Assembly: GCA_965262615.1 (NCBI GenBank)
Contig: OZ253545.1
Span: 756,776-820,775, forward strand
Direction of reading: 5' to 3'
Source of the DNA: Alphaproteobacteria bacterium
GTDB taxonomy: Bacteria; Pseudomonadota; Alphaproteobacteria; GM7ARS4; G965262615
Length of the DNA: 64,000 nt
A model generated the notes under the pieces. It saw only the letters and a program-made list of their open reading frames with translations, searched no databases and was not told the origin of the DNA. This document shows, piece after piece, positions 12,141 to 58,421 of this stretch. Positions within the stretch are counted from its first letter, which is position 1. The number at the start of each line of letters is the position of its first letter. A program made the position numbers and the translations under genes.

Positions 12141-12785
12141 TTATTTGATATATCCCTGGGCAATTAAAATAGTGACAGTAATGCCCCCAAACCACATCAA
12201 GATGTTTACTTTGCCTGTGAGAACTTGCATCTTTGTGTCCAAAGATTGAATTGATTTGATGACATCTGACATAGTCCAGACCTCTGAAGAAATGAGAGAC
12301 TCCACATCGGCTCCACCAAGCTCTGTTTTGCCTTGAAGGGGACCCGAATAGCGTTTTATGCTGGGTTTTGCCAATCTGTGTATTTCCAAAGTGAGAAAGT
12401 CTTCTTTGAAGGTAAAGGTGACGCGGCGGGAAGTTGGGTTGACAATCCTAGCAAACAATCTGCCGTGAAAACCTGGATCAATTTGTGCACCTGTTGTGGC
12501 ATAAATTCCTTTTCTGGCAAGACCAGAGGTCAGATCAAAACGAGCGGCGTGGCTCTGATTGATTGCGATTATTTCATGAGTGCCGATAATGGCAGAGTCA
12601 CCAGCCTCAACAATGATAAAACCTTTTTCAGAAATATCTTCTATTTTCTTTCCTTGAATGGTTGCTCCCTGTTTGCCCACGCGCAAATCGTAGGATGCGG
12701 GCTGCAATTGCCTGTCTTCATAATCAGAAATCTCAATCCCGCCATTATCAAGAGCTTCTTTAATCCCTTTGTCTGACAAAATCAT
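12141..12785 (-). CDS. dCTP-deaminase/dUTPase-fold protein with a C-terminal transmembrane anchor (paralog 1)
   Basis: MILSDKGI, QPASYDLRVG, TSGLARKGI and IDPGFHG resemble Dcd. The C-terminal hydrophobic stretch is ILMWFGGITVTILIAQGYI. The region is A+T-rich. Confidence 0.6.
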   Translation of the reverse strand: MILSDKGIKEALDNGGIEISDYEDRQLQPASYDLRVGKQGATIQGKKIEDISEKGFIIVEAGDSAIIGTHEIIAINQSHAARFDLTSGLARKGIYATTGAQIDPGFHGRLFARIVNPTSRRVTFTFKEDFLTLEIHRLAKPSIKRYSGPLQGKTELGGADVESLISSEVWTMSDVIKSIQSLDTKMQVLTGKVNILMWFGGITVTILIAQGYIK

Positions 12786-12820
12786 TGCGGCACCCTCTTT
12801 TGTTGATGCAATGTTCTTTT

Positions 12821-12914
12821 AATATACTATTTTTTGCTTGGTCTTACAAGAATGAACGGAAATTACTTTGAAGACGGTTTGTCCCGTTGTTCAAAAAGAG
12901 GTTCGCTGACCGCA
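12821..12914 (-). promoter_or_regulatory. conserved upstream element of paralog 1: sigma70-like promoter (TTGTAA, 17-nt spacer, TATATT) plus an upstream imperfect inverted repeat
   Basis: On the minus strand, -35 is TTGTAA (12844-12849) and -10 is TATATT (12821-12826). The same element recurs 825 bp away. Confidence 0.45.
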
Positions 12915-12965
12915 TTTTTTAATCTTTTTTCAGCTGCGATAACTCATATAAAACTTCGTTTTGTT

Positions 12966-13610
12966 TTATCTGAAAGATGCCATAATTCCCATCAAAGCGA
13001 GCATGACAGGAAAAAGCCACATCAACATTTTTACTTGAATTGCGAGCTCTCGCACCTCTCTGCTGGAAGATTGAACCGATTTGATGATGTCTGGCACAGT
13101 CCATACCTCTGAAGAAAAGAAATGCTCCACATCACCTCCATCAAACTCCGTTTTGCCTTGATAGGGACCCGAATAAGGCTTTGTGCTGGGTTCTAACAAT
13201 TGGTGTATTTCCAAAGTGAGAAAGTCCTGTTTGAAGGTGAAGGTGACGGGATGAGGCATCAAATTGGTAATGCCAACAAACAATCTGCCGTGATACCCCG
13301 GGTCCACTTGTGTGCCTGTTGTGGCATAAATTCCTCTTCTGGCATGACCAGAGGTCAGACCAAAACGAGCCGCGTGACTCGCATCCATTCTGATGACCTC
13401 ATGAGTGCTGAGAAGGGCAGAGTCACCAGCCTCAACAACGATAAAACCTCGTTCAGAAATATCTTCTATTTTCTTCCCCTTAAGAGTTGCCACCTGCCTG
13501 CCAACGCGCAAATCGTAGGACGCCGGCTGCAACTGCTTGTCCTCATAACCAGAGATCTCAATCCCTTTATCCCTGAGAGCTTGTTTGATTCCGTTGTCCG
13601 ATAAAACCAT
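12966..13610 (-). CDS. dCTP-deaminase/dUTPase-fold protein with a C-terminal transmembrane anchor (paralog 2)
   Basis: Same length (214 aa) and motifs as paralog 1 (QPASYDLRVG, TSGHARRGI, VDPGYHG). The C-terminal hydrophobic stretch is LMWLFPVMLALMGIMASF. Confidence 0.6.
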   Translation of the reverse strand: MVLSDNGIKQALRDKGIEISGYEDKQLQPASYDLRVGRQVATLKGKKIEDISERGFIVVEAGDSALLSTHEVIRMDASHAARFGLTSGHARRGIYATTGTQVDPGYHGRLFVGITNLMPHPVTFTFKQDFLTLEIHQLLEPSTKPYSGPYQGKTEFDGGDVEHFFSSEVWTVPDIIKSVQSSSREVRELAIQVKMLMWLFPVMLALMGIMASFR

Positions 13611-13645
13611 TGCACGATCCTTTTTTCTTGAAACGACACCCCGCC

Positions 13646-13739
13646 ACTATACTATTTTTTGCTTGGTCTTACAAGAATGAACGGCAATTACTTTGAAGAC
13701 GGTTTGTCTTGCCGTTCAAAAAGAGGTTCGCTGACCGCA
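13646..13739 (-). promoter_or_regulatory. conserved upstream element of paralog 2: promoter (TTGTAA, 17-nt spacer, TATAGT) plus a 9-bp perfect inverted repeat GAACGGCAA/TTGCCGTTC
   Basis: Copy of 12821-12914. The inverted-repeat arms, read on the plus strand within 13678-13717, flank a 22-nt spacer. The element overlaps the 3' end of the 94-aa ORF. Confidence 0.45.
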
Positions 13740-14000
13740 AAATAGTTTTAGTTCATACAAAATTTTGTCAATGAGCAAATCACGCACCGCCAGATAGGGT
13801 GTGTAATAATCCACCGCAACAACGCGCTCCATATCAATATCGTCACAATCCCATTTTTGATCCACAACGATGGCAAACATGGATGACGCACTGATGTCTT
13901 CATCCAAAAAATCACTGACGCTGTCGCCATCAATGGTCTTGACATGCTGGCGCACCAAATTCAGCAAAGCGGTAAAATCTTGAGGGTTCAGCTCGCACAT
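13716..14000 (-). CDS. hypothetical small acidic protein (94 aa)
   Basis: The ATG lies 3 nt after the stop of the upstream 244-aa gene (TGA-gcc-ATG). The protein is strongly acidic (DGDSVSDFLDEDISA, DCDDIDME). I recognise no domain. Confidence 0.5.
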   Translation of the reverse strand: MCELNPQDFTALLNLVRQHVKTIDGDSVSDFLDEDISASSMFAIVVDQKWDCDDIDMERVVAVDYYTPYLAVRDLLIDKILYELKLFCGQRTSF

Positions 14001-14003
14001 GGC

Positions 14004-14738
14004 TCAATAGGTCTTGCGTTCTTCTTCCAGTTTTTTGGCATCGTAATGGGCGATGAAATTCTCGTAAGGAATAAAATCGTAGCGCGCGTAATGACTGGCA
14101 TAAGGCTCGCGTCCCATGACCTTGTCATATTTCGTCTTAAATTGGGGTGGTGCTAAAATATAGAATTTCGTTCTAAAGGGTTCTAATTGATAGAGGCGAG
14201 AAATGGCATTTTCCATCGTTCCAATGCTATCCACCACTTCATAGGCTCTTTGCGGGAATGGTTTATCTTTTTTGTCAAAAAAAATGACATCAATGTTTCT
14301 GGCTTCGGCAAGAATATCACCATAGGTAAATGGTGGGAGTTCCGACAAAGTGACAAGGTTTTTGAGAGGCACACCATTGAATTGAGCCGCTTTATCGGCG
14401 GTGAATGTGTGGTATTCGTCCAAGTTACCCAGCTCAATACACACGCCTTCCATGTGAGCGTGCATACGCTCGTCATCTTTTTTGATGGTGGCGAGGGGTG
14501 TTTCTTCGTATTGTCTGTCCTTGAGGGCAAAGATGCCGATGCCCAGCTTTTTGAACGCGGTGTCGGGGTTTTTCATATCTCTGTAAAGCACACCTCTGAG
14601 ACCCGCCTTCCAGTCATCTGACCGCTTGGCTTCAGGATAATAGCGTTCAATGGTGTCGTAGATAACTTCCCATGAGGCAACGCCATCATGGTCTTGTAGC
14701 AATCGGCGCATGGCTTCTATTTTTGTTGCGTCACTCAT
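14004..14738 (-). CDS. hypothetical protein: N-terminal winged-helix (Mrr-N/HARE-like) and C-terminal putative PD-(D/E)xK-like nuclease domain
   Basis: The N-terminus WEVIYDTIERYYP...WKAGLRGVLYRDMK...FKKLGIGIFAL resembles wHTH modules of restriction proteins. The C-terminal pattern is HAHMEGVCIELG ... NIDVIFFDKK ... RAYEVVDS. The functional call is tentative. Confidence 0.45.
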   Translation of the reverse strand: MSDATKIEAMRRLLQDHDGVASWEVIYDTIERYYPEAKRSDDWKAGLRGVLYRDMKNPDTAFKKLGIGIFALKDRQYEETPLATIKKDDERMHAHMEGVCIELGNLDEYHTFTADKAAQFNGVPLKNLVTLSELPPFTYGDILAEARNIDVIFFDKKDKPFPQRAYEVVDSIGTMENAISRLYQLEPFRTKFYILAPPQFKTKYDKVMGREPYASHYARYDFIPYENFIAHYDAKKLEEERKTY

Positions 14739-14777
14739 GAAATTATGACTTTAATAAAAAATGTTCGGTAAGGCGAA

Positions 14778-15683
14778 TTATTTTTTTATAATCAATTTTT
14801 TGTGGTGTTTTTTGGCAATGACTGTGGCAAGGAGAATCAATCCTGCCGCGGTGGCAATGGAGCCGCCGCCATTGAAGGCTCGTCCTTCCGTCAGCACCAC
14901 CAGCGGCACATACAACGCGACAACATAGCCCAATAAAACCGATGTGACCGCGATGAGCATCGCCATAATTAATTGCGTGATGGCGTCGCCTCCCAGCACC
15001 GCCGCGGTGGTGACTGGAATGGCAAACAGTGCAATGGTCACCACCGCTCCTGTTGCCTGAAAACACGCCGCCGCCGCGATTGCCGTGAGCCCTGCCAACA
15101 CATACCGCCAGCGCGCTGTGGACATACCAATGGACTCGGCATAAATGGGGTCAAAAATCACCACCATCAATTCCTTGCGTAGCGGCAGCACAATCGCCGC
15201 CACCAGCACCAACACCAACGCCAACATCCAAATCTCATAGGGCACAAACCACACATCAGACCACGCCACGCCATTCAACAAAGACGGCATCATGATGCCC
15301 TCCAAATTGCCATACAACGCATGCTCAACATCAATATGAAAATGAGACAGCTGCAATCGCTCCAGAAAAAAAACGCCCAAGGCGAAAAAACTGGTGAGCG
15401 TCATGCCCATCGCCCCTTGGGTGTTCAAAACGGTGTGTTTCTCCAGCCACTCGCTCAAGAGCAACGAGAGCATGGCAGCCAGCGTGGCACACAGCAAAAT
15501 CATGGACGGTGACAGCGTGTGACTCACCACCGCCGCCGCCACAATGCCCGGCAACACCGCATGGCTCACCGCATTGGCATACAACAATCCCTGACGCAAA
15601 AACAAAAAATGCCCCATCAAACAGGCAATCATCGCGGTGAGCAACGCCGCGAGCAAGGCGGGAATGTCCAACGCCAGACTCAT
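14778..15683 (-). CDS. metal (Mn/Zn/Fe) ABC transporter permease
   Basis: Polytopic membrane protein of the ABC-3 (MntD/ZnuB/SitD) type. ATG 15683 overlaps the upstream permease stop (ATGA). The 432-aa tracked ORF is an out-of-context N-terminal extension. Confidence 0.85.
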   Translation of the reverse strand: MSLALDIPALLAALLTAMIACLMGHFLFLRQGLLYANAVSHAVLPGIVAAAVVSHTLSPSMILLCATLAAMLSLLLSEWLEKHTVLNTQGAMGMTLTSFFALGVFFLERLQLSHFHIDVEHALYGNLEGIMMPSLLNGVAWSDVWFVPYEIWMLALVLVLVAAIVLPLRKELMVVIFDPIYAESIGMSTARWRYVLAGLTAIAAAACFQATGAVVTIALFAIPVTTAAVLGGDAITQLIMAMLIAVTSVLLGYVVALYVPLVVLTEGRAFNGGGSIATAAGLILLATVIAKKHHKKLIIKK

Positions 15684-18348: not shown

Positions 18349-18367
18349 AGACTCCTTTATGGGCTAG

Positions 18368-18390
18368 TTGCGAATGATTGTCAATAGCAA
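18368..18390. promoter_or_regulatory. candidate Fur/Mur-type operator upstream of the metal ABC operon
   Basis: Imperfect palindrome TTGCGAATGATTGTCAATAGCAA, with 16 of 23 positions self-complementary by my count. It lies 20-42 nt upstream of the first possible start codon. Motif resemblance only. Confidence 0.3.
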
Positions 18391-18486
18391 GTAGAGGTAT
18401 TATGACACATAATCCACACAATTACAAAGTGTAATCTTAATTTTTTGTTGGAATTGTCAATCGTGAGGCAGGGGCGCAAGGAGGGC

Positions 18487-18891
18487 TTATTCTTTGTCAA
18501 ATGGTGGTTCTGTGTTTGCAAAATCAATCCTTTCTATGGATGGTATCCGAAATGTAAATGCTGTGCGTCCTTGAAATGAGCTCACGGCAAAATCTCCTTC
18601 GCCAATAATATCCATTCCTATGAGAATGTCGATCTCACCAGATAAACTTTCTGATTCACTCACGAGATGATTTTCAAACATCACACCATTGGGAAGAACG
18701 ATATTCACACGATATGCCGCAACTCTTTGAGGTTCTACCGTGCTGGGGGTTCTGACAAGAGCGACACCCACTTGCCGCAAGGCACATTTTTTTGCCACAT
18801 GCTTTGTGACTGATGTGTGTGTTGCTCCCGTATCCCAGATGGCTTTGAACTGAATTTTTTGTGCATGGGCATGGGCGTGTGCCACACCCAC
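18487..18891 (-). CDS. retropepsin-like (clan AA) aspartic protease
   Basis: Catalytic motif WDTGATHTSV, followed by ILIGMDII (a flap/GxD-like region). The apparent start is GTG, followed by a His-Ala repeat (HAHAHA). Confidence 0.65.
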   Translation of the reverse strand: MGVAHAHAHAQKIQFKAIWDTGATHTSVTKHVAKKCALRQVGVALVRTPSTVEPQRVAAYRVNIVLPNGVMFENHLVSESESLSGEIDILIGMDIIGEGDFAVSSFQGRTAFTFRIPSIERIDFANTEPPFDKE

Positions 18892-18942
18892 ACATCACTT
18901 GAGAGCTCACTCAAGCGAGTGTTTGCATCAATGGTAAAAGCT

Positions 18943-19215
18943 TTAATGGGCGGGTTTCTTTGCGCCATCAATAAAGGAAAACCGAGTTTGAAATGTTTGA
19001 TGGATGCTACGCGGATCCTCCGAACACTCCTGCACCAAGAATGTCCCCAGCTCATGCTTTTTGCTGGTGACCTTGATGGCTTCCTTCACATCATCATAAG
19101 CACCAATGACTTGTTGGTCTTTAATCACAACAAACTTGCCGTTGTATTTTTTGACCAACGCCTCGTGATTCTCCAAAAAATAATCAAAATCCCGATCCAA
19201 CTTCCTGTCCAACAT
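18943..19215 (-). CDS. small protein, DUF5678-like (putative partner of the aspartic protease)
   Basis: YNGKFVVIKDQQVIGAYDDVKEAIKV resembles the short DUF5678-type domain. It sits directly upstream of the protease on the same strand. Confidence 0.45.
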   Translation of the reverse strand: MLDRKLDRDFDYFLENHEALVKKYNGKFVVIKDQQVIGAYDDVKEAIKVTSKKHELGTFLVQECSEDPRSIHQTFQTRFSFIDGAKKPAH

Positions 19216-19400
19216 GATTAATTCCCTTCGTCAGTGTGTGTTGTTTGTTGCAGAGAGCGTCACCATTCCTCAAGATAAGATGAAAAATGAACCAGCACAA
19301 GAGAAAGGCGGGGGAATTCTTTGAAGATGCCATGGACTTTTTAATTGATTGCAGTTACAATCAAAATCTTATTTCGTTGGAAACATGAAGGAGGCTGGAT

Positions 19401-20759
19401 ATGAAATGCAAAATTAAGGATTGGGAAATAGGCGAGTTTGACAGTCGCAAACATAAGATAAATTTTGATCCCCCATATCAAAGAACTGAGAAGGCTTGGG
19501 ATGAAAAAATGCAACAGTTGTTGATTGACTCCATCATCAATGGCTATGACATCCCTAAGATTTATCTCCACAAATTAGCGGATGGTGGGTACGATGTTAT
19601 TGATGGCAAGCAACGCCTAACGGCTATATTTCGCTTTCTTAACAATGAATTTGGACTTGCCATTGCTAAGGGGAAAAATAATGGCTTTGAACTGACTGCG
19701 CCGTCTTTAAATGATTTTGAAGCCCGAGACCCTGAGCAAGGGAATATTTTTGATGATTTATCAACAGCATGGCGCGATAAAATCATGGATTTTTCTGTTA
19801 CAGTAACCATTGTTAGTGATGCTGATGAACTGGAAGTTAAAGGCTTTTTTGCTCGCTTGAACAAAGGGAAACAAGTTAATAATACAGAGCTCAGGCGTTC
19901 AATTGGCGGGACTCTTATGAATTCAATTAAAAGGCTGGCAAAGGATGATTTCTTCACAAAGAAAACGAAATTGTCCAATGACAGATTGATGATGGAAGAT
20001 ATTGCCACTAAATTTATTCTGATTGAAGATCTTGCCAATTTTTCTCATCCAGAACACAAACCGTATCAGGATTTGAAAAGGGAAGATCTTGATAAAGTTG
20101 TTAGACGCTACAAACAAGAAGAGGATAGCCAAAAAGTCAAAACATTGGAAAAAATTAAAACATTGGAAAAAATGGCAAAATCCAATCTTCAAGTAATGAA
20201 AGATGTATTTGAAGATAATTCGCCCCTATTGGCACAAAGCTCTATTCAGCTTTATTATCTCTTTATAAGAAAAATAAAGCTTGAATATGGTCACGAAAAT
20301 TTGAAAGGCTTGCTCAAGTCCTTTTTAGAGGATTTTGAGGTTGAGCGTCTGCTTGTAAGAGCCAAAACGAAAAGTGATGATGTTAAACCCGTAAATTTGA
20401 ATGAGGAAGAATTGTTTCGGGAACATAGAATACGGCGATTTATTTTAGACCAATCTAAATCCAACGATAAGAAAAGCTTGGAGCGACGAGTAGATACTCT
20501 GACAGGCTTTTTCATTGAAAAACATCCTGATGTTTTTGTTGTTGTTCGCAAAGATGAAAAGAGGCTTTTTACAAAGGATGAAAGGTTTATCATTTTTAAG
20601 CTGAGTGGTGGAAAATGTGCCAATTGTGGAAAAATATTTAAGGATTTTTCCGACTTTGATGCTGACCATGTCATTTCATGGGCAAAGGGGGGTCCCACCA
20701 CCATCGCCAATGCCCAAGCTTTGTGCAAAAGTTGCAACAGAAGCAAAGGCGCGCGCTAA
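19401..20759 (+). CDS. DUF262 (ParB/Srx-fold, DGQQR-type) + C-terminal HNH endonuclease; GmrSD-like type IV restriction candidate
   Basis: N-terminus FDPPYQR...LIDSIINGYDIPKIY...VIDGKQRLTAI, C-terminus DADHVISWAKGGPTTIANAQALCKSCNRSKG. GGAGG precedes the ATG. The sequence is strongly A+T-rich and carries an 18-bp in-frame tandem duplication at 20139-20174 (KTLEKI/KTLEKM). Confidence 0.8.
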   Translation: MKCKIKDWEIGEFDSRKHKINFDPPYQRTEKAWDEKMQQLLIDSIINGYDIPKIYLHKLADGGYDVIDGKQRLTAIFRFLNNEFGLAIAKGKNNGFELTAPSLNDFEARDPEQGNIFDDLSTAWRDKIMDFSVTVTIVSDADELEVKGFFARLNKGKQVNNTELRRSIGGTLMNSIKRLAKDDFFTKKTKLSNDRLMMEDIATKFILIEDLANFSHPEHKPYQDLKREDLDKVVRRYKQEEDSQKVKTLEKIKTLEKMAKSNLQVMKDVFEDNSPLLAQSSIQLYYLFIRKIKLEYGHENLKGLLKSFLEDFEVERLLVRAKTKSDDVKPVNLNEEELFREHRIRRFILDQSKSNDKKSLERRVDTLTGFFIEKHPDVFVVVRKDEKRLFTKDERFIIFKLSGGKCANCGKIFKDFSDFDADHVISWAKGGPTTIANAQALCKSCNRSKGAR

Positions 20760-20809
20760 AAATCATTTTCCCCTTGGCATGATGCCGCGGTTCATTACAA
20801 TACGGCATT

Positions 20810-49135: not shown

Positions 49136-49794
49136 GAAACAAAAGCAAATGAGGACGATGTGTGCGCCATTGCCAAAGGAGGGGAATCCAGATTGCTCGC
49201 CACCATCACCGCACCGCCTCGGGCGCGGTGGCGCATCATGGAACAGCTGATGCCATCGTTCACCAGCACCATCAGCACCCCCCGTGATGTCAATTGTTGG
49301 GTGAGGTGGCGCATGGACACCCCCTCATCCACAAAGCCCGCCAACACAATGATGTCATAGGGCGCATGAGGAAGGCAGCCGCTCAGTAAATGACCTTGAT
49401 GAAAATGAATGTGCTCATCGCCGTGTGTTTGCTGCTTCAGATGCTCAATATCTGCATCCAGCAGCGTGACACTGAGATTTAATTGACGCGCAATGGCTGT
49501 GCCATATAAAGAAGGCTCACCAATAATCAGGATGTTGCGGGCATCGGGCACTGCCAGCAATGCCTCTTGCATCAGGCGGGCAAATGTCAAAACTTTGAGC
49601 AGGCAACGCTCCGCCGTGATGGGTATATTCCGATCGCTATAGGCGATGGCTTGTTGTTTCAGAGGCAGATAGCGTTCTCGCTGCACGCTGGCGATGGCTT
49701 CCAGCAGTCGGTCATGAAAAATCCCTTGCGGACGCAGCTGTCCGTCAATCATTGTGCGCCTTTGCCCGTCACGATTTTTGTCAAAGCGATCCAT
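49132..49794 (-). CDS. pcm: protein-L-isoaspartate O-methyltransferase family protein
   Basis: N-terminus MIDGQLRPQGIFHDRLLEAIASVQRERYLP and a SAM-binding-like ILIIGEPSLYG. Its position after tolC is typical. Confidence 0.7.
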   Translation of the reverse strand: MDRFDKNRDGQRRTMIDGQLRPQGIFHDRLLEAIASVQRERYLPLKQQAIAYSDRNIPITAERCLLKVLTFARLMQEALLAVPDARNILIIGEPSLYGTAIARQLNLSVTLLDADIEHLKQQTHGDEHIHFHQGHLLSGCLPHAPYDIIVLAGFVDEGVSMRHLTQQLTSRGVLMVLVNDGISCSMMRHRARGGAVMVASNLDSPPLAMAHTSSSFAFVS

Positions 49795-49848: not shown

Positions 49849-51102
49849 ATGAATAAAACAGAAAATCAAGAGACTCTGGTGCTGGCGCGCCGCTATCGTC
49901 CTGCTCGCTTCACCGATGTGATTGGACAGGATGTCTCCGCTCGCATTTTGATGAACAGCTGTGAGACGGGACGAGTGGCTCATGCCTTTTTATTGAGTGG
50001 CATCAGGGGCACAGGCAAGACAACGCTGGCGCGCATCATGGCACTCGCGCTCAATTGTCAGGAGACCGACCGACCCAATCCTCATCCGTGTGGCACATGT
50101 GATTCGTGTCGCGCCATTCTGGAAGGACGCGCCGTGGATGTGATTGAACTGGACGCCGCCAGTCATACCGGTGTGGATCACATGCGCGATCTGCTGGACA
50201 GGCTTTCCTATGGCGCGGTGGCGGCACGCACCAAGGTGTATATTTTGGATGAAGCTCACATGTTGAGCAAGGGGGCGGTCAATGCATTGTTGAAAACATT
50301 GGAAGAGCCACCGTCTGGCGTGGTTTTTATTCTTGCCACCACCGAATTGGATCGCATTCCTGCCACCATTCGCTCTCGCTGTCAGCATCATGTTTTGCGC
50401 CGTGTGTCTCATGGAACTTTGCAAAAGCATTTTTTGCACATTGCTAGCCAAGAAAATCTCACCTTGCATGAAGATGCCGCCGCCTTGCTGGCGATGCTGG
50501 CGGAGGGGTCGGTGCGCGATGGTCTCTCCTTACTGGATACGGCGATTGCCGCAAGTGACAAGGGAGTCATCACCGCCGCCATCGTCCGAGACATGGTGGG
50601 AATGGCACAGCAGACGCAAACGCAGCAATTGCTGGATCATATTCTTGCCGCCAACACTAGCGACGCCCTCACCCATGCGCGCGCCCTCTATCAAGAGGGC
50701 TCCGAGCCCGAACAATTGGCGCGTGAGCTGTTGCGATTGTGTCATGAATCATTGGTGCATCATGTGATGGAACAACAGACACCAGATGATGCCTTGCTGG
50801 TGCGTTACAGTCGTTTGTGGCAAATTCTTTTGCACAATTATGAGGACATCACGCACGCTCCTCATCCGATGGCAACACTGGAGATGGGCATTGTGCGGGC
50901 GACTCATGCACTCAATGTGGCAGGCATGGATGATATGGTGAGACATGTGGCACAGCAATTGCGACATGGTGCGCCGTCACCGCCGCCCCATGCCCCAAAA
51001 AAAGATACCACCGCACCTCAAGCCTTATCCACTGATGAGGCATCTCTCACTGAGGCGGCATTGACACTTTTTCCTGATGCCACCGTTGAGCCCTCGTCCT
51101 GA
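49849..51102 (+). CDS. dnaX: DNA polymerase III subunit gamma/tau (short, 417 aa)
   Basis: RYRPARF, GIRGTGKTT, the Zn module CGTCDSC, DEAHML, and SRCQ (sensor 1/2). Confidence 0.9.
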   Translation: MNKTENQETLVLARRYRPARFTDVIGQDVSARILMNSCETGRVAHAFLLSGIRGTGKTTLARIMALALNCQETDRPNPHPCGTCDSCRAILEGRAVDVIELDAASHTGVDHMRDLLDRLSYGAVAARTKVYILDEAHMLSKGAVNALLKTLEEPPSGVVFILATTELDRIPATIRSRCQHHVLRRVSHGTLQKHFLHIASQENLTLHEDAAALLAMLAEGSVRDGLSLLDTAIAASDKGVITAAIVRDMVGMAQQTQTQQLLDHILAANTSDALTHARALYQEGSEPEQLARELLRLCHESLVHHVMEQQTPDDALLVRYSRLWQILLHNYEDITHAPHPMATLEMGIVRATHALNVAGMDDMVRHVAQQLRHGAPSPPPHAPKKDTTAPQALSTDEASLTEAALTLFPDATVEPSS

Positions 51103-51719: not shown

Positions 51720-52636
51720 TGCGTTTTGCGTTGTGGTGTGTGGGTGTGCTGAGTTTGTCTGCGTTTGACGCGCTCGCCGATACGCCACTGTCTTTTGCAC
51801 TGGATGAGGGGGAGTCTGTGGAGATTGGGGCACAGGGAGATATTACTTGGTCAGAGGTGCATCACAGTTTGACGGCGCGCAAATCGGCTTTTGTGGCACA
51901 GGGGCAGCAGCGCGTGGATGCCGACACCATCTTTTTCTTTTTCGCCGATGACCCATCGCAAGATGGCATGGATTCTTTGCAATTGGTCTCAATGGATGCG
52001 GCAGGAGAAGTGCATATTCAAAACGCTCGTAGCCGCGCCACGGCACAGCGTGCCAATTATCATGCGACAACGCGCGTTCTCACTCTTTATGCCGATGAGG
52101 CAGAAGAGGTCTGGCTTTATTTTCCCGACAGAAAGTTTGAACTCACCGCCAAGCAGCAATTGGTTTATGATGACATCAAAGGGCGCGCCCATGCCACAGG
52201 AGGCACGCTTTTTACCCATCACCAATTCACGCTGCACAGTGATGAGCTCATTGCTTTCATGACGGATGCGCCCAATCGTGCCATGGCGGCGTTGCGTGCC
52301 AATCATGGCGTGATTTTGCGTCATCCCCAAGGGCAGTTGCAAGGCAAGCACGGCGTGTACGACCTTGCCGCCAATGTGGTCACCATGAGTGGCGATGTGC
52401 GTCTGACCAGTGACGGTAAGGAATTTGCGGGTGATTACGGAATTTTTAATTTGCGGACGGGAGTCAGTCGCTTGGTTTCATTTGCCGAAGCCGAGCATTT
52501 GCGCGCCCGCTACAAAGCCCCCATTGAGCGCACCGTTCGCACTGAGATGGGCAGTGACTCAAAACGCCCCACGGCTGTCATCACCATCAATCCCAACGGT
52601 GCACAAGAAAACGAACCATCCAGCGAGCAGCAATGA
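51719..52636 (+). CDS. lptA: LptA/OstA-family periplasmic LPS-transport protein (long form)
   Basis: Signal peptide, and repeated OstA-like beta-jellyroll patterns (A..A.Y......L.L.G.V.L). lptB lies downstream. Confidence 0.6.
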   Translation: MRFALWCVGVLSLSAFDALADTPLSFALDEGESVEIGAQGDITWSEVHHSLTARKSAFVAQGQQRVDADTIFFFFADDPSQDGMDSLQLVSMDAAGEVHIQNARSRATAQRANYHATTRVLTLYADEAEEVWLYFPDRKFELTAKQQLVYDDIKGRAHATGGTLFTHHQFTLHSDELIAFMTDAPNRAMAALRANHGVILRHPQGQLQGKHGVYDLAANVVTMSGDVRLTSDGKEFAGDYGIFNLRTGVSRLVSFAEAEHLRARYKAPIERTVRTEMGSDSKRPTAVITINPNGAQENEPSSEQQ

Positions 52637-52858
52637 TTAGCCTCTGCGAACGGGCTTGCCTTTAAGTGCCTGTTCATACTCCCATTTGGCGGCAGATGCT
52701 CGCGTGACCCTATGCCCCACTTGGAAAATATGACCTTTTTTGCCGTATGTTCGCTTATGCTCCTCTTCGCGTCGTTGAAGATCATTGGTGATGCCCGTAT
52801 GGATGATCCTGTTACCTTTTTTGAAATGGTACTTATAGATGCACTTATCCTGATACAT
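52637..52858 (-). CDS. mini GIY-YIG-like protein (73 aa), paralog A
   Basis: CIYKYHF..GNRIIHTGITNDLQRREEEH...KWEYEQ follows the GIY...YIG...R...H...E order. AAGGAG lies 7 nt before ATG 52858 (the tracked start 52876 is a TTG). The stop codon abuts the lptA stop. Confidence 0.55.
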   Translation of the reverse strand: MYQDKCIYKYHFKKGNRIIHTGITNDLQRREEEHKRTYGKKGHIFQVGHRVTRASAAKWEYEQALKGKPVRRG

Positions 52859-52893
52859 GACAAACTCCTTCAGCAAGATGGGGTGCTGATTCC

Positions 52894-52921
52894 AGTATAG
52901 TCTTTATTTGTGTTTTTTCAA
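52894..52921 (-). promoter_or_regulatory. near-consensus sigma70 promoter for paralog A (TTGAAA, 16-nt spacer, TATACT)
   Basis: On the minus strand, -35 is at 52916-52921 and -10 at 52894-52899. Confidence 0.5.
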
Positions 52922-52938
52922 TTGAGCAGGAATAATTA

Positions 52939-53151
52939 TTAGTGAATAGGCGTTCCTTGCCGTGCTTGTTCATGTTCCCATTTGACAGCATCGTATCGCG
53001 TCACTCTGTCCCCCACTCTCTCAACAGAACATTGGGAATTTTCCTGCTCATATTCTTTTTCAATGAGTTCAATATCTTTGGTGATGCCCGCATAGACAAT
53101 CTTGCCATCTACTTTCAAAAAGTAACGATAAATGCACCTGTCCTTATACAT
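52939..53151 (-). CDS. mini GIY-YIG-like protein (70 aa), paralog B (degenerate motifs)
   Basis: CIYRYFL..DGKIVYAGITKDIELIEKEY...KWEHEQ. The Arg and His positions of paralog A are replaced. GAGGGAG precedes ATG 53151. Confidence 0.5.
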   Translation of the reverse strand: MYKDRCIYRYFLKVDGKIVYAGITKDIELIEKEYEQENSQCSVERVGDRVTRYDAVKWEHEQARQGTPIH

Positions 53152-53186
53152 GACAAACTCCCTCAATAAAATGGACTGCTGATGCC

Positions 53187-53215
53187 AATATAGTCTTTAT
53201 TTGTGTTTTTTTCAA
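53187..53215 (-). promoter_or_regulatory. near-consensus sigma70 promoter for paralog B (TTGAAA, 17-nt spacer, TATATT)
   Basis: On the minus strand, -35 is at 53210-53215, abutting the stop codon of the 167-aa gene, and -10 is at 53187-53192. Confidence 0.5.
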
Positions 53216-53719
53216 TTATGAATTTGCATAATATGCCTGAATTTTTTTCAAAATGAGCAAAGTAATTTTAGCAAATTGATTGATATCAAAGGTGACTTCC
53301 CACTTCGCTTCTATTTTATTATTGGGATTTTCACCCGTCATGGTGACAGAAGACGCATAGTGGTAAGCATATGCGTGAATAACCTTATGACATAATGGCA
53401 AAAAATAAATTGTTTCTTTTTCTTTCTTACCTTCTTTGCTGGTCATCAGAATCGTGCCACATTTCTCGTCATCAAAAGTACTGAGAATTTTTTCTTTTTG
53501 CTTTCTTTTTTCCTCATTTTTGTCGGCAAGTGTTTGTTCGTTTAATTTACGCATAAAGACGGCGATGATGATGAGCGATTTGGTGGCTGTTTCATTCAAT
53601 GTGTCGTGATGGGAAGGTGTGTTCAATGACTGCATATTTTCTTTTGCCGCAAGAATGGCTTGCAAAAGATAAAGTTCCTTGTGCAATTCGGCAACATTGA
53701 AAAGGAATTGAGCATTCAT
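53216..53719 (-). CDS. hypothetical protein (167 aa), no recognisable domain
   Basis: An uninterrupted ORF in very A+T-rich DNA with a central Lys/Glu-rich segment (KNEEKRKQKEK). It is the first gene of the lptA|lptB islet. Confidence 0.45.
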   Translation of the reverse strand: MNAQFLFNVAELHKELYLLQAILAAKENMQSLNTPSHHDTLNETATKSLIIIAVFMRKLNEQTLADKNEEKRKQKEKILSTFDDEKCGTILMTSKEGKKEKETIYFLPLCHKVIHAYAYHYASSVTMTGENPNNKIEAKWEVTFDINQFAKITLLILKKIQAYYANS

Positions 53720-53795
53720 GTCACCATCATAGACAATGCAATGATGATTGTGAAGTTGGCATCACTGTGCTAGTGTGCGTTTCGTTGTGTGATTG

Positions 53796-54590
53796 ATGGC
53801 GACAGGAAAAACAAAAAAACGCAATCTATCGGTGGTTCGCGAGGGACTGGCGGTTGAGCACATCACCTATGAGGTGGGTCGTCGGCGCATTGTGCGGGAT
53901 GTGAGTTTGCATGTGGGGCGCGGCGAGGTGGTGGCGTTGTTGGGCCCCAATGGGGCGGGTAAGACCAGCACCTTTCATTCCATCACGGGTGTGGTGCGTC
54001 CGCGACGAGGAACGGTGTGGCTGGATGGCTATGATGTGACGGGCTTGCCGATGTATCGCCGTTCTCGCTTGGGTCTTGGTTATTTGCCGCAGGAGTCTTC
54101 CATTTTTCGCGGCATGAGTGTCAGTGACAACATCATGGCGATTTTGGAGATTGTGGAGAGTGATGCCCTCAAGCGTCGCACCACATTGGATGAGTTGCTG
54201 GCGGAGTTTTCCATTTCGCACTTGGCGGAGGCGGAGTCTGTGTCGTTATCGGGTGGTGAGCGTCGGCGTTTGGAGATTGCTCGCTGTCTTGCGTCAGAGC
54301 CTCGCTACATGTTGTTGGATGAGCCGTTGGCGGGGATTGATCCCATTGCGGTCAATGATATTCGTCACTTGGTGGCGCGTCTGAAAAATCGGGGTCTGGG
54401 GGTTTTGATCACCGACCATAATGTGCAGGAGACCCTTGCCATCTCAGATCGCGCCTACATCATTCATGACGGCACGATTTTGCGCGAGGGCACGCCTGAT
54501 GACATCATCAAGGATGAGACCGTTCGCAGCGTGTATTTGGGTGATGATTTCTCGCCGTCTCATTTTGCCACTCTTCGTGCTCGGCGGTGA
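53796..54590 (+). CDS. lptB: LPS export ABC transporter ATP-binding protein
   Basis: GPNGAGKTS, LSGGERRRLEIAR, LLDEP, and the LptB-like YLGDDF C-terminus. Confidence 0.9.
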   Translation: MATGKTKKRNLSVVREGLAVEHITYEVGRRRIVRDVSLHVGRGEVVALLGPNGAGKTSTFHSITGVVRPRRGTVWLDGYDVTGLPMYRRSRLGLGYLPQESSIFRGMSVSDNIMAILEIVESDALKRRTTLDELLAEFSISHLAEAESVSLSGGERRRLEIARCLASEPRYMLLDEPLAGIDPIAVNDIRHLVARLKNRGLGVLITDHNVQETLAISDRAYIIHDGTILREGTPDDIIKDETVRSVYLGDDFSPSHFATLRARR

Positions 54591-55888
54591 GTGGGGGTTC
54601 GGTTGTTTTAGCGGCACCGTCTTCCCATCAGGGCAAGACTTCTGTGACATTGGCATTGATTGCGGCGTGGAAGAGGCGCGAGCTGCGCGTGGGCGCATGC
54701 AAGGTGGGTCCTGACTATATTGATAGCGGATTGCATCGGCGCGTGGGAGCGGATGTCACAATTAATTTGGACCTGTGGGCGATGCGCGATGAGGTGTGCC
54801 GTCATGGATGGCACGAGTTGGAGGATGCCAGCGATCGCATCGTGGTGGAAGGCGTGATGGGATTGTTTGACAAAGGCGGCAGAGGCTGCTGCACCGCCGA
54901 TGTGGCGGCGTATTTGGGGTTGGGGGTGATTTTGGTGGTGGATGCCGCCCACATGGCGCAATCGGCTGCCGCCTTGCTGGAAGGATTTGCTCACCACAGA
55001 GACGATTGCGCGGTGCGGGGGGTGATTTTCAATCGCGTGGGCAGTGCCCGCCATGGGTCTTATTTGCGTGAGGCGGCTCATAGTGCCAATGTGCCGTTGT
55101 TGGGATTGTTGCCGTCCGAGCCATCCATTGCCATTGCGTCTCGCCATCTGGGATTGCATCAGGGGCATGAGATGTCCGACCGCTTGGTGCACGATTTGGC
55201 TCACTGGCTGGAGAGCAACGCCGATGTGTCCGCCATTGAAAAAACGAGTGATTCATCGTCACTGAGTGGGTCATCATCTCACCACAAGTCGTTGGTGTCT
55301 CTTTGTGATGTGAGTCATGTGGCGGTGGCGCGCGATGAGGCGTTTTCTTTTTGTTATGAGTGGCTCACGCGCGGTTGGCAGCGGGCGGGCATGCGCGTCT
55401 CTCACTTTTCGCCGTTGGCGGGCGAGATGCCTCATAAAGATTGTGATGCGGTGATGCTGGTGGGCGGCTATCCCGAGCATCACTTGGAGGCATTGGGGGA
55501 TGGTTTTTTCGCCACCATGAGGGAGCTCGCGGCGCGCGGCGTTCCCATTTATGGGGAGTGTGGCGGATTTATGGTTCTGGGGCGCAGTGTGACCGATGGC
55601 GATGGGGTGCGTCATGAGATGGCGAATTTGTTGCCTGTGGATTTCTCGTTCGTCTCGCCGCGCCGTTCATTGGGCTATCGCCGTTGTCGGTTGGTGCATG
55701 ATTGTTTTTTGGGGACGAAGGGCAGGGTGTTGCGGGGGCATGAGTTTCATTACGGACGCATCACCCATCAAGAGGGTGCGCCGCTTTTTCGCATGGAACA
55801 CGATGACGGCGAAGGCTGGCATGATGCTGGTTGTCGGGTGGGGTCGGTGATGGGGAGTTTTTTTCATTTGATAGATTTTGAATCGTGA
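54587..55888 (+). CDS. cobB: cobyrinic/hydrogenobyrinic acid a,c-diamide synthase family protein (CobB/CbiA)
   Basis: N-terminal P-loop-like SSHQGKTSVTLAL and PDYID, with a C-terminal glutamine amidotransferase region (YGECGGFMVLG). The GTG start overlaps the lptB stop. Confidence 0.8.
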   Translation: MSGGSVVLAAPSSHQGKTSVTLALIAAWKRRELRVGACKVGPDYIDSGLHRRVGADVTINLDLWAMRDEVCRHGWHELEDASDRIVVEGVMGLFDKGGRGCCTADVAAYLGLGVILVVDAAHMAQSAAALLEGFAHHRDDCAVRGVIFNRVGSARHGSYLREAAHSANVPLLGLLPSEPSIAIASRHLGLHQGHEMSDRLVHDLAHWLESNADVSAIEKTSDSSSLSGSSSHHKSLVSLCDVSHVAVARDEAFSFCYEWLTRGWQRAGMRVSHFSPLAGEMPHKDCDAVMLVGGYPEHHLEALGDGFFATMRELAARGVPIYGECGGFMVLGRSVTDGDGVRHEMANLLPVDFSFVSPRRSLGYRRCRLVHDCFLGTKGRVLRGHEFHYGRITHQEGAPLFRMEHDDGEGWHDAGCRVGSVMGSFFHLIDFES

Positions 55889-55930
55889 TTGCGGTATGAT
55901 GGTGGGTGATTCAACGACAAAAGGGAGGCG

Positions 55931-56887
55931 ATGATGGCAAAAGCAACGAAACTGGCTCTGGTGGGAGCGGGGCAGATTGGTGGCACACTGGCGCACTTGG
56001 CGGCGCAGGATGTGTTTGATGAGATTGCCCTTTATGACATCGCGGGGGATATGGCGCGCGGCAAGGCATTGGATTTGATGCAAGCCGGCGCGGTGGAAGG
56101 TTTTGAGGCACACATTCACGGCGGCGATGAGGATTCTTTGGTGCGTGATGCCGATGTGGTGATTGTCACTTCGGGCTTGCCGCGCAAACCCGGCATGAGC
56201 CGCGATGATTTGATTGAAAGCAATTGTGCCATCATCAAAAAAGTGGGGGCGTTGATTAAGACGCAATCCCCCAAGGCGTTTGTGATTGTGGTGACCAATC
56301 CGTTGGATGTGATGGTGTGGGTGATGCGGCAGGTGACGGGTTTTCCTCATGCACGAGTTGTGGGCATGGCGGGCGTTTTGGACTCGGCGCGTTTTGCTCA
56401 TTTTTTGAGCGCAGCTCTGGGCATCGCCAAGAATGATATTTCCTGCACGGTGCTAGGCGGGCATGGTGATTTGATGGTGCCCCTCATCGGTTATTCATCG
56501 GCTGGGGGTGTCTCGCTGGATGAATGGGTGCACAGCGGGCGGTTGCCACAGGATGTTTTGGATGGCATCATTGAACGCACGCGCGGCGGCGGCGGTGAGA
56601 TTGTCAAACTGCTGGGGACCGGTTCGGCGTTTTATGCGCCCGCAGCATCGGCGTTGCGCATGGCGCGAGCGTTTGTCCGAGACGAAAAACGCCTGCTCAC
56701 CGCGGCGGCATGGCTAAGAGATGCTTATGGCGAGCGCGATGTTTATGCCGGCGTTCCGGTTACAATTGGTGCGGGTGGCGTTGAGCAAATCGTCCAGCTG
56801 AGCCTCAGTGACACGGAGCAAGCGGCATTCAAACAATCGGTGGCGGCGGTGCGAGAATTAGTTGCCGTTGCCGAAAAAATGATATAA
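55931..56887 (+). CDS. mdh: malate dehydrogenase (LDH-like type)
   Basis: LVGAGQIGGTLA, GLPRKPGMSRDDL, VTNPLDVM, VLGGHGD. Confidence 0.95.
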   Translation: MMAKATKLALVGAGQIGGTLAHLAAQDVFDEIALYDIAGDMARGKALDLMQAGAVEGFEAHIHGGDEDSLVRDADVVIVTSGLPRKPGMSRDDLIESNCAIIKKVGALIKTQSPKAFVIVVTNPLDVMVWVMRQVTGFPHARVVGMAGVLDSARFAHFLSAALGIAKNDISCTVLGGHGDLMVPLIGYSSAGGVSLDEWVHSGRLPQDVLDGIIERTRGGGGEIVKLLGTGSAFYAPAASALRMARAFVRDEKRLLTAAAWLRDAYGERDVYAGVPVTIGAGGVEQIVQLSLSDTEQAAFKQSVAAVRELVAVAEKMI

Positions 56888-56899
56888 AAAGGATTCATC

Positions 56900-58063
56900 A
56901 TGACTGTTATTACCAGACCCGCTATTGAAGTAACGCAGGGCAGATACAAATTGTATCTGACATCCTTTACTGCCGAGCATTTTAACATGGCTGATTTTTA
57001 TGATGTTAAGAAATTAAATATTGACGCAGAAGGTGGCTATCAAAGAGGTTTGCAAGAAACGCGCGTCAAAAGGTTTGTTACAGACATTGTCCGAGCCTCT
57101 CACGATTCGAGGGCAGCTACCGAAGATAATAATTTCGGGTCGTGCTTTTATCCCACATCGGTTTTTTTGACAACAGAACATGATGTGAAATATGACGATG
57201 AGAAGAGAGAAATATTATTTGACACAAGCATTTGTCCTTTCAACATTGTGGATGGTCAGCATCGTGTGGAGGCTTTGCGGAAAGCCAGTAACGGGAATAC
57301 CGCTTTGGATGATTTTCCCATGCCCGTCACACTGGCAACCAACCTCAAGGAAGTGGAACAAATGCTTCAATTTTTGATTGTGAATAGCCAACAAAAGAAG
57401 GTTGAAAAAGGAGTGGAGCAACACATTTATGCGCGTTTATGCGATATGCAAACACTTAAACCAATGCCTTTTTTGCCAGGAGTGGTGGAAAGAGAAGTAG
57501 GAAAGGGCTTATATCGTGAGTGTTTTGACATTGTCAAATTTCTGAATAATGAAGAAACTTCTCCTTGGAAAGGAAAAATTGTCATGGCTGATGATGACCC
57601 TAAAAAGAAAGGTGTTAAACAAGCTGCGTTTGTGGGTAGTTTGAAAAGGTATATTTTTGCCCAAGGCAACCTTTTGCATGAGAAAAAGGATGATATTCGT
57701 TATGTGAAAAATTTTCTTTTGAACTACTGGATCGCTTTAACCGAATTCGCATCTCGGGACATTCGTATTGAGTCTGATTCAAATATTTTCAAAACAAATG
57801 GACTAAACTTTTTTCATGAAATTTCTAGCCTTTTTGCAGAAAAGTGCTTGAATAATGATGATGCGACAGTCCCCACAATTAGAGGATATTTTGAGGGGGT
57901 GAACGACTGTGCGTTGGAATTGGGAAATGAAAAGGTGGTAAAATTGATGGCATCTGCAAATTGGGCGAAAGGTGGTGAATTTGGTAAATTGAATCTAGGG
58001 GGCATTAGGGGCAAGGCTAGTGAATATAGTGCAATTTTTAAGAGTTGGGATTTAGGATTCTAG
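56900..58063 (+). CDS. DGQHR-domain protein (DndB-like, ParB/Srx-fold)
   Basis: YQRGLQETRVKRF ... NIVDGQHRVEALR ... EQMLQFLIVNSQQKKV. The ATG lies 12 nt after the mdh stop, preceded by AAGGA. The sequence is A+T-rich. Confidence 0.75.
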   Translation: MTVITRPAIEVTQGRYKLYLTSFTAEHFNMADFYDVKKLNIDAEGGYQRGLQETRVKRFVTDIVRASHDSRAATEDNNFGSCFYPTSVFLTTEHDVKYDDEKREILFDTSICPFNIVDGQHRVEALRKASNGNTALDDFPMPVTLATNLKEVEQMLQFLIVNSQQKKVEKGVEQHIYARLCDMQTLKPMPFLPGVVEREVGKGLYRECFDIVKFLNNEETSPWKGKIVMADDDPKKKGVKQAAFVGSLKRYIFAQGNLLHEKKDDIRYVKNFLLNYWIALTEFASRDIRIESDSNIFKTNGLNFFHEISSLFAEKCLNNDDATVPTIRGYFEGVNDCALELGNEKVVKLMASANWAKGGEFGKLNLGGIRGKASEYSAIFKSWDLGF

Positions 58064-58079
58064 GCAGTGAGCTCAACCT

Positions 58080-58421
58080 TTGAATATTGCTAATTTAACC
58101 CCTCAAGTTGAGCACAAAGTATCCTTTAGTGGCAGAGAGCTTTTGTCCGTTCCTAAAGAGGCGGGTTGCTATGTGCTGACCAATTTTAGTGGTGAGATTT
58201 TTTATATTGGTAGGGCTAAAGATTTGTGCAGACGCATGGCACAGCATTTAGAAAATCCAAAGATGAGACAGCGAATTACTGCAGGCAAGGCAACTCAATT
58301 CCACTATCGCTTGTGTGAGGTCAAAGAGCTTCCCTATCTTGAAAGAGGCTGGATGAACGAGTATAGAATGAATAATGGTGGCAGGTTGCCCCCTTTTAAT
58401 GAGGTGGATGCTGCCATCTAA
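58080..58421 (+). CDS. GIY-YIG nuclease domain protein (113 aa)
   Basis: GCYVLTN..GEIFYIGRAKDLCRRMAQH ... LERGWMNEY..N gives the full motif set. The only in-frame starts before the domain are TTG (58080 or 58143). Confidence 0.65.
   Translation: MNIANLTPQVEHKVSFSGRELLSVPKEAGCYVLTNFSGEIFYIGRAKDLCRRMAQHLENPKMRQRITAGKATQFHYRLCEVKELPYLERGWMNEYRMNNGGRLPPFNEVDAAI

Follow-up and report, generated by a model that had tools for sequence, protein, structure and literature searches.

Small, mostly defence-type cassettes at fixed core-gene junctions of a compact alphaproteobacterial chromosome and their probable turnover by homologous recombination

Introduction

Many hotspots of horizontal gene transfer in bacterial chromosomes carry no recognisable mobile element, the core genes that flank them show an excess of homologous recombination, and recombination in both flanks has been proposed as the route of exchange (Oliveira et al. 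2017, PMC5635113). Here we analyse a 64,000-nucleotide (nt) segment of a compact alphaproteobacterial chromosome with a core G+C fraction (GC) of ~0.54 (contig OZ253545.1, positions 756,776 to 820,775; hereafter the window, whose own numbering is used throughout), in which seven low-GC islets of accessory genes lie between housekeeping genes. Like the hotspots described by Oliveira et al., these islets are fixed, core-flanked slots with rapid turnover of content, no integrase or transposase, and possible signs of recombination in the flanks. They differ in that the cassettes are very small and dense, with seven slots in 64 kb (~21%), and in that several sit within conserved gene strings (lptA/lptB, mdh/sucC, and ilvD/xthA). 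The window is a new, unusually dense and fine-grained case of a known pattern and gives no sign of a new insertion mechanism.

A second comparison is offered by the core defence hotspots of Pseudomonas aeruginosa. In Johnson et al. (2023, PMC10250203), these too are reported as anti-phage sets that vary across strains of one species between conserved core markers. In place of large multi-system islands, each slot of the window holds one compact module, and the host is an uncultured alphaproteobacterium.

At the level of single genes, the closest described systems are the GmrSD-family type IV restriction enzymes, in which a DUF262 ParB-fold domain is paired with a His-Me nuclease (PMC4619093). 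More broadly, ParB-fold DUF262 or DGQHR domains joined to HNH, PD-(D/E)xK, or HEPN nucleases are a known defence design (PMC3632139, PMC4619093). Two islets resemble GmrSD: the gene at 19401-20759 in islet B encodes a protein whose N-terminal DUF262 domain bears a DGKQR motif and which ends in a His-Me (HNH) nuclease, and islet G encodes a putative ParB-fold sensor (possibly an NTPase) with a nuclease, in both split and fused forms. They differ from GmrSD in the nuclease, which is a PF01844 HNH domain rather than DUF1524 in islet B (same His-Me superfamily, other family) and a GIY-YIG domain in islet G. The islet G protein also resembles DndB and DpdB of the phosphorothioation and 7-deazaguanine systems, as it has the DGQHR, QR, and FxxxN motifs and matches Pfam DndB and PADLOC DpdB; unlike those systems, it has no dndACDE or dpdA/C nearby, in the window or the sister contigs, and its partner is a GIY-YIG nuclease.

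Small nuclease open reading frames (ORFs) between conserved genes, with a diverged flank beside the insert, also recall the seg (GIY-YIG) and mob (HNH) genes of T-even phages. In contrast to those, the window proteins show no DNA-binding domain, phage-family kinship, or presence/absence polymorphism, and their HNH domains are fused to other enzymatic domains. Sponge symbionts are rich in restriction-modification systems, toxin-antitoxin systems, and ankyrin proteins (PMC4850255), and the public sequencing runs that share sequence with the window carry sponge and marine metagenome labels.

Seven low-GC islets without mobility genes

An earlier note on this DNA, made from its letters alone, had described at least five A+T-rich islets at junctions of core genes. 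Quantification bears this out and brings the count to seven gene-bearing islets between housekeeping genes: A (12116-14777), B (18349-21180), C (29191-31188), D (33440-35155), E (41343-42498), F (52637-53792), and G (56888-58436). With a 13-nt repeat discussed below, they make up ~13.5 kb, or ~21% of the window. The compositional difference is pronounced, as the 16 islet genes have a mean GC of 0.427 (0.357-0.497) against 0.546 (0.496-0.574) in 31 core genes (Mann-Whitney p = 3e-8), and GC at third codon positions is 0.43 in islet genes versus 0.60 in core genes. Each cassette comprises 1-4 genes in 1.1-2.8 kb. The junctions had been called unusually tight; the individual figures are correct (an ATGA overlap with the ilvD stop, a spacing of 12 nt from mdh, and none from the lptA-like gene, 0 nt), but the tightness is not unusual, since junctions between core genes have a median gap of -1 nt (interquartile range -4 to 20) and those of the islets one of 26 nt.

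Scans of the window against Pfam, NCBIfam, and PADLOC found no integrase, transposase, or recombinase among its ~60 ORFs, and the precomputed Pfam matches of the sister contigs show no mobile element in the slots. The longest direct and inverted repeats across islet boundaries are 6-10 nt, inside the null range (95th percentile 10 and 9), and an Rfam scan of the window returned two tRNAs only. Scans and boundary-repeat test thus agree with the earlier observation that integrase, transposase, tRNA-flank duplication, and terminal repeats are missing. The search of the flanks for repeats and shared junction motifs that the note had proposed gave no common motif or terminal repeat above chance.

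The claim that the islets share members of a few nuclease folds is borne out in large part. Pfam matches confirm the DUF262 gene at 19401, the DGQHR gene at 56900, and the HNH domains at the gene ends 20759 and 41350, although neither HNH domain is free-standing, as had been supposed; both are fused to larger proteins. Of three proposed GIY-YIG genes, the one at 58080 scores above the Pfam cut-off and those at 52637 and 52939 are only probable, while the PD-(D/E)xK-like candidate at 14004 is plausible, with a conserved acidic pattern but no Pfam or Protein Data Bank (PDB) match to its C-terminal domain. Not of nuclease type are a dCTP-deaminase-like (DCD-like) gene pair, an ankyrin-repeat protein, and a helix-turn-helix (HTH)-M78 protein, and the slots with such cargo, or with a DUF3800 gene as in a sister strain, are equally without mobility genes. 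The ankyrin gene (29345-31048), the HTH-M78 and DUF4411 genes (33506-35145, at most partly of nuclease type), and the gene-free 13-nt repeat (2425-2702) had been omitted from the list of low-GC features, and the DCD-like pair lay undescribed within a listed span.

Sister strains carry divergent alleles in the same slots

Sister contigs were gathered by homologue searches with the DndB-like protein of islet G and two core proteins. Species-representative genomes (queried with mdh) and JGI metagenome contigs (queried with dnaX) held no close relative, the best matches being 60% for mdh and 50% for dnaX. The conclusions draw on contigs free of N gaps, namely the long-read contigs L162, L163, L166, L167, and L169 plus L174, a contig from Logan. 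Each of the short-read scaffolds L161, L164, and L168 is interrupted by 100-N gaps at or near islet boundaries, at 2043-2142 in L161, 4034-4133 and 6472-6571 in L164, and 5965-6064 in L168. Such breaks probably come from co-existing strains that differ there. As 100-N scaffold gaps can mimic empty sites, an apparently empty E site in L168, which is such a gap, was discarded.

The sister contigs share the gene order valS-tolC-pcm-dnaX-recR-lptA-(F)-lptB-cobB-mdh-(G)-sucCD, as well as ilvD-(E)-xthA and folD-(B)-znuA, and their core genes are 96-100% identical to those of the window in protein and 97-100% in DNA. In sharp contrast, sliding DNA identity falls from ~98% to 51-90% over 52515-53715 and 56615-58515, that is, at islets F and G. 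The drop begins within the 3' ends of the flanking genes, at ~52515 in the lptA-like gene and at ~56615 in mdh, so that divergence runs 100-300 nt into both. Synonymous divergence (dS) is 0.03-0.15 in core genes, 0.54 in the DndB-like gene, and 0.30 in the GIY-YIG gene, and the ratio of nonsynonymous to synonymous divergence (dN/dS) in the variable genes is 0.18-0.52. High dS together with dN/dS below 1 indicates old, functional alleles, each under purifying selection, that were imported, not hypermutation in place.

Islet G, between mdh and sucC, provides the clearest case. It comprises, on the plus strand, a gene for the DndB-like DGQHR (ParB-fold) protein (56900-58063; Pfam DndB E 1e-9, PADLOC DpdB match) and a GIY-YIG nuclease gene (58080-58421; Pfam PF01541 E 1e-7, 32.4 bits against a cut-off of 22.6). 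The DndB-like gene is present in all six contigs that cover the junction and the GIY-YIG gene or domain in five, the sixth (L164) having an N gap where it would sit; empty sites number 0 of 6. Relative to the window, the DndB-like alleles are 95, 66, 67, 51, 39, and 41% identical, against 96-100% for core genes. Where the core is 99% identical, DndB-like alleles of 66%, 67%, and 39% occur, whereas L161, with the most divergent core (sucC 95%, holA 91%), has the closest allele (95%). Even within a cassette the two genes can differ, as in L162, where the DndB-like protein is 66% and the GIY-YIG protein 88% identical. By these comparisons, cassette history and core history disagree.

At islet B, between folD and znuA, the breakpoint of exchange can be located inside a gene. 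The DUF262-HNH gene (19401-20759, plus strand) matches GmrSD_N/DUF262 (PF03235) with E 2e-18, HNH at its C terminus with E 1.5e-12, and the PADLOC NsnA-like profile with 9e-34. In L169 the flanks of the islet are 95-98% identical in DNA and only the hypervariable stretch 19244-20566 is without DNA similarity. The two DUF262-HNH proteins have the same architecture and both carry the DGKQR motif, yet they are 39% identical overall, against ~85% in the last ~60 amino acids (aa), which form the HNH domain; the corresponding DNA (20567-20759 in the window, 6038-6230 in L169) is ~95% identical, and elsewhere in the gene DNA similarity is absent. Because the HNH end is alike and the rest has diverged, the breakpoint lies inside the gene: the HNH nuclease module was kept and the N-terminal and central parts were swapped between strains. 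For this gene dS is saturated and dN/dS is 0.18.

Islet F, between the lptA-like gene and lptB and antisense to them, shows copy-number change in addition. On the minus strand it encodes mini1 (52637-52858, 73 aa), mini2 (52939-53151, 70 aa), and a 167-aa protein of unknown function (53216-53719). The two mini genes are paralogues in a 293-base-pair (bp) tandem unit, and sister strains have between one and three mini genes of two types that are ~45% identical. Duplication or deletion joints of the unit occur in X1, X2, and X4, which are among four metagenome runs examined for depth and joints. The 167-aa protein is 75-84% identical between strains (dS 0.19), against 98-100% for lptB, and empty lptA/lptB sites number 0 of 5 sister contigs.

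The sample that yielded the long-read contigs L162, L163, L166, L167, and L169 contains at least three co-existing strains, which bear different alleles at the same slots. In the metagenome runs, the depth of islets B and G is 3-10 fold lower in three runs, with loose ends at 19217, near the islet B allele breakpoint, where unlike sequence sets in, and in other samples the window's alleles of islets A and B are minority forms. Among the joints listed for the four runs, none skips E, F, or G. Taken together, strains whose cores are 97-100% identical differ in what they carry at slots B, C, D, F, and G, and slot A differs by comparison with the distant relative L170.

Cargo change at slots A, C, and D and a stable resident at slot E

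Islet C (egtB/hisA-like junction) encodes on the minus strand a 567-aa ankyrin-repeat protein (29345-31048; Pfam Ank E 2e-102, 14 repeats, with DNA repeats of 102 nt), which is probably a host-interaction factor and not a nuclease. In the same slot L167 (14823-16297) has a 176-aa ankyrin protein followed by a DUF3800 gene; both ankyrin repeat number and slot content therefore vary between strains.

Islet D (33506-35145, plus strand) encodes an HTH protein with an M78/IrrE-like peptidase (PADLOC RmrA-like) and a DUF4411 (PIN-like) protein. In L167, 240 bp with only an MT-A70 fragment stands in place of window 33440-35155. A tRNA-Asn gene (35169-35244) lies 13 nt from the end of islet D, with its 3' end facing the islet; at the islet we find no integrase, no direct repeat of the tRNA-Asn 3' end, and no repeat of at least 8 nt between the junctions.

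Islet A, between aspC and a zinc permease gene, opens with two DCD-like paralogues on the minus strand (12141-12785 and 12966-13610, 214 aa each; Pfam DCD E 3e-18 and 8e-19, PHROG dCTP deaminase 3e-19). They are the product of an 825-bp tandem duplication, and their coding parts are 80-83% identical. Before each gene stands a 92-nt element (12823-12914 and 13648-13739). The two elements are 95% identical, have no Rfam match, and fold no better than shuffled sequences (z -1.4); they are probably promoters or 5' leaders kept alike by gene conversion. In run X4 the main contig has a single DCD copy (joint 12103 to 12931), and depth falls at copy 1. Also on the minus strand, the islet continues with an ORF of 94 aa and unknown function (13716-14000) and with the gene for a 244-aa protein (14004-14738). 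Depth over 13716-14738 is 3-4 fold lower in runs X1 and X2, and contigs of unlike sequence end precisely at the permease stop codon (14778). Separately, the distant relative L170 (ZnuA 61% identical) has at its aspC/permease junction (13583-15669) an AIPR gene (Abi; abortive infection, ParB-related) and a 100-aa ORF. Accessory genes have therefore occupied this junction even in a distantly related lineage.

Islet E, between ilvD and xthA, behaves differently from the variable slots. Its one gene (41350-42498, minus strand) encodes a fusion protein, an N6_N4 methylase (E 8e-46) that carries an HNH domain (E 8e-15) at its C terminus, and the gene's start overlaps the ilvD stop (ATGA). The protein is 96.3% identical in L167, its dS of 0.17 compares with 0.11-0.15 in ilvD and xthA, and its dN/dS is 0.09. 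Depth is full in all four runs. We conclude that this methylase-HNH gene is a stable resident within the close clade, and it is probably translationally coupled.

Recombination in conserved flanks as the likely route of turnover

We consider it likely that the islets are hotspot slots, free of mobile elements, that are turned over by homologous recombination in their flanks. Under this model, fixed junctions between housekeeping genes would each hold a short accessory cassette, mostly of defence type. Incoming DNA from a sister lineage, arriving by transformation, transduction, or another route, would pair with the conserved flanking core genes, and the host's own homologous recombination would then swap the cassette. 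The outcome would be allele replacement, change of cargo, or gain and loss of tandem copies by unequal crossing-over. Cassettes would lack mobility genes because none are needed. Phage pressure would preserve a large stock of divergent alleles within the population, and the recurrence of nuclease folds would reflect the prevalence of nucleases among defence effectors, not a role of nucleases in the insertion itself. Both the recombination route and the role of phage pressure in maintaining diversity are inferred from these patterns, and the putative defence function of each module from domain families.

Several points weigh against this reading. The divergence tracts in the flanking genes would be equally expected from homing-type co-conversion. 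All alleles have a GC of 0.35-0.40 in a host of 0.54, which within-clade exchange alone does not explain; continued import from low-GC donors, or selection, would have to be added. PADLOC and PHROG gave no defence match for the DCD-like pair, the 94-aa ORF, the 167-aa ORF, or the mini genes. Finally, the comparison covers a handful of sister contigs, about one to five per slot, and slot A could be compared only with the distant relative L170 and with Logan contigs.

The best surviving alternative, which we nonetheless regard as improbable, is that the islets are decayed integrative elements, remnants of islands or prophages that lost their integrase and att sites. Islet D adjoins the 3' end of a tRNA gene (tRNA-Asn), the classical kind of site for integration, which is suggestive, as are the lone MT-A70 fragment in slot D of L167, which implies decay and turnover, and the islet E methylase domain, which is 45-48% identical to phage methylases. 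However, six of the seven islets lie away from tRNA genes, no islet has an integrase, tRNA 3' duplication, or flank repeats, and inert remnants would not account for alleles still being exchanged, and copy numbers still changing, between strains of 97-100% identity.

Very improbable, in our judgement, is the homing-type mobility that the earlier note raised as one of two possibilities, an unusual, nuclease-driven mode of insertion, in which free-standing GIY-YIG or HNH enzymes, like those of T-even seg and mob genes, would cut an empty or alternative allele and repair would copy the cassette in, giving insertion without integrases. Nuclease genes do stand between conserved genes with short junctions, and the 100-300 nt of divergence in the 3' ends of mdh and the lptA-like gene resembles a co-conversion tract. 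The proteins themselves argue otherwise. The two HNH domains form the C termini of a DUF262 protein and a methylase, and the GIY-YIG proteins, at 70-113 aa, consist of a catalytic core without a DNA-binding domain, one of them being partnered with or fused to the DndB-like protein. No phage relatives of the GIY-YIG proteins emerged, with no tblastn match in 50,697 phage records and none in 38,880 PHROG families. In a PDB search the islet G GIY-YIG profile is nearest to the GIY-YIG domain of UvrC (3e-8), with SLX1 also matched, and reaches I-TevI at only 0.014-0.15. The empty sites that such a mechanism calls for are missing, both in the contigs covering F and G and among the joints listed for the four runs, and turnover at slots C and D, as of the DCD genes in A, requires no nuclease.

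Purely vertical inheritance in which the islet genes evolve very fast where they stand, through diversifying selection or local hypermutation and without exchange, is likewise very improbable: slot positions and gene architecture are kept in all sister strains and defence genes are known arms-race targets, but synonymous divergence is 4 to >30 times that of adjacent core genes with dN/dS below 1 throughout, allele similarity contradicts core similarity (L161 versus L162, L163, and L166), and cargo is qualitatively different at slots A, C, and D.

The other possibility raised by the earlier note, that a streamlined genome is under selection to carry many mini defence modules, fits both gene content and allelic diversity. 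The note had also proposed to ask whether the islet genes are vertically inherited and syntenic throughout the clade; this is true of the islet positions, but as regards content only of the methylase-HNH gene, the other contents being exchanged within the clade. The window is an example of how a compact genome can carry and renew a dense set of defence modules without mobile-element machinery, through conserved flanks and housekeeping recombination. Co-existing strains with different slot alleles should be useful for population studies of phage-host arms races in symbioses, and three sets of genes stand out as candidate systems: the DndB-like and GIY-YIG pair, the HARE-HTH nuclease-like protein with the DCD-like genes, and the mini GIY-YIG array.

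Candidate defence modules in islets G, B, F, and A

Judged by their domain families, the DUF262-HNH protein and the DndB-like/GIY-YIG pair may both combine a ParB-fold sensor of DNA or its modification (possibly an NTPase) with a nuclease effector, following the type IV logic of GmrSD. In islet G, residues D118-R122 of the DGQHR motif, Q48-R49, and F158..N162 (FxxxN) are invariant in 13 DndB-like sequences. The GIY-YIG gene probably starts at 58149, as in its relatives, instead of at 58080. In L166 and L174 the two genes are fused and encode a single protein of 524-526 aa, and an overlapping pair of DndB-like and GIY-YIG genes also occurs in an unrelated termite-gut genome; fusion in two strains and recurrence outside the clade imply a real two-part module. 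No dndACDE, dpdA, or dpdC gene is found in the window or in contigs L161-L164, L166, and L171-L174, and we found no description of a DGQHR and GIY-YIG pairing in the literature. The pair is a candidate for a new restriction-type (type IV-like) module.

The islet G genes share the orientation of the surrounding mdh-sucC-sucD string, and between the mdh stop and the sucC start there is no promoter-like site on the plus strand and no terminator-like site, which suggests expression by read-through; islet G is thus probably part of the mdh-sucCD transcript. The mdh/sucC junction was also considered as a defence slot across the Alphaproteobacteria, and this was rejected: in ~80 distant genomes the mdh-sucC gap is mostly 60-250 nt and the few inserts are unrelated. 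These inserts (L027 2373-4294, L002 11008-11685, L054 11019-11828, and L058 10976-11590), as read from translations and not scanned, comprise a ~220-aa TenA/PqqC-like ORF (twice) and Sel1-repeat, OmpA-like, and flavodoxin-like proteins.

Besides its DUF262-HNH gene, whose C terminus matches PF01844/PF14279 HNH and not DUF1524, islet B holds an Asp-protease-like gene (18487-18891, minus strand) and a 127-aa ORF (20810-21193, plus strand).

The mini proteins of islet F probably have the GIY-YIG fold, to judge from a model and borderline matches. Pfam GIY-YIG matches mini1 below its cut-off (E = 0.012, 16.3 bits), mini2 has no Pfam match, and two sister mini copies have precomputed GIY-YIG matches labelled weak. 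An AF2 model of mini1 (pLDDT 79.5) has a beta-beta-alpha-beta-alpha arrangement, with the GIY-YIG domains of UvrC and I-TevI as top Foldseek matches, at E>0.5. A PDB profile search of the mini family gave nothing significant, and hhalign against the islet G GIY-YIG family gave a probability of 5%. In an alignment read by eye, the two columns past the YIG-like strand hold Arg-Arg in mini1; of four distinct mini2-type sequences, two (one of them from the window) lack Arg at these columns, and the remaining two have Arg-Arg or Thr. Each islet F gene has its own sigma-70-like site (10/12 matches).

In islet A the 244-aa protein combines an N-terminal HARE-HTH-type winged helix with a putative restriction-endonuclease-like C-terminal domain. 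Its family numbers 333 cluster representatives; HARE-HTH is matched in 7 of 26 members, and the PDB matches are to forkhead-type winged helices. The C-terminal domain has conserved residues H93, E102, and D150-V151 and an E-x-E motif (E-V-V-D in the window's subfamily), a pattern that makes a PD-(D/E)xK nuclease plausible. No Pfam or PDB match covers this domain, and its AF2 model has a pLDDT of 40.

A bolder proposal can be built on these modules, to which we give only an outside chance. The DndB-like/GIY-YIG pair would constitute a restriction-type defence system not yet described, occurring in split and fused forms as GmrSD does and always on within the mdh-sucCD transcript, and its divergent alleles would be specificity variants maintained by phages. 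In the boldest form, resident nucleases would cut rival alleles on incoming or sister DNA, giving a homing-like drive that acts between alleles and needs no empty site. A second small-nuclease module, likewise undescribed, would be formed by the tandem mini-GIY-YIG genes together with the 167-aa protein.

Genomic setting and minor features of the window

The housekeeping genes of the window include mutL, uvrB, aspC, a znuABC-type transporter, folD, argS, dgt, ilvD, valS, tolC, dnaX, recR, the lptA-like gene, lptB, cobB, mdh, sucCD, and holA. Other core content comprises a pyrroloquinoline quinone (PQQ) dehydrogenase of the methanol/ethanol family (2820-4724), ergothioneine genes (egtB/egtD, in the 31189-33452 region), and tetrahydromethanopterin (H4MPT)-pathway-type genes, the counterparts of 22657-29190 on sister contigs being labelled DUF447, 4HFCP_synth, DUF6513, and ATP-grasp (H4MPT-pathway-type Pfam families). 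The dehydrogenase, H4MPT-type, and egt genes hint at a one-carbon-utilising lifestyle in a sponge or marine habitat.

The 13-nt tandem repeat TGAATTGGTGCTT occupies 2425-2702, in perfect register, with 21.4 copies and 94% matches. Starting from the mutL stop codon, it takes up most of the space before the PQQ dehydrogenase gene and explains the local dip in GC; a 97-aa ORF on the minus strand over the repeat is probably spurious.

The gene after lptB is usually rpoN; in the window (lptB-cobB region, 53793-55888) it is cobB (cobyrinic acid a,c-diamide synthase). In L162, cobB is broken into ORFs of 283 and 129 aa, possibly by a frameshift or a long-read error. Hypervariable patches are also found within core genes, at 47515-47715 (a 289-aa DUF2497-like protein), 49015-49315 (the tolC/pcm junction), and 50915-51015 (the dnaX C terminus), and a 42-nt replacement joint (47669 to 47712) occurs in three runs.

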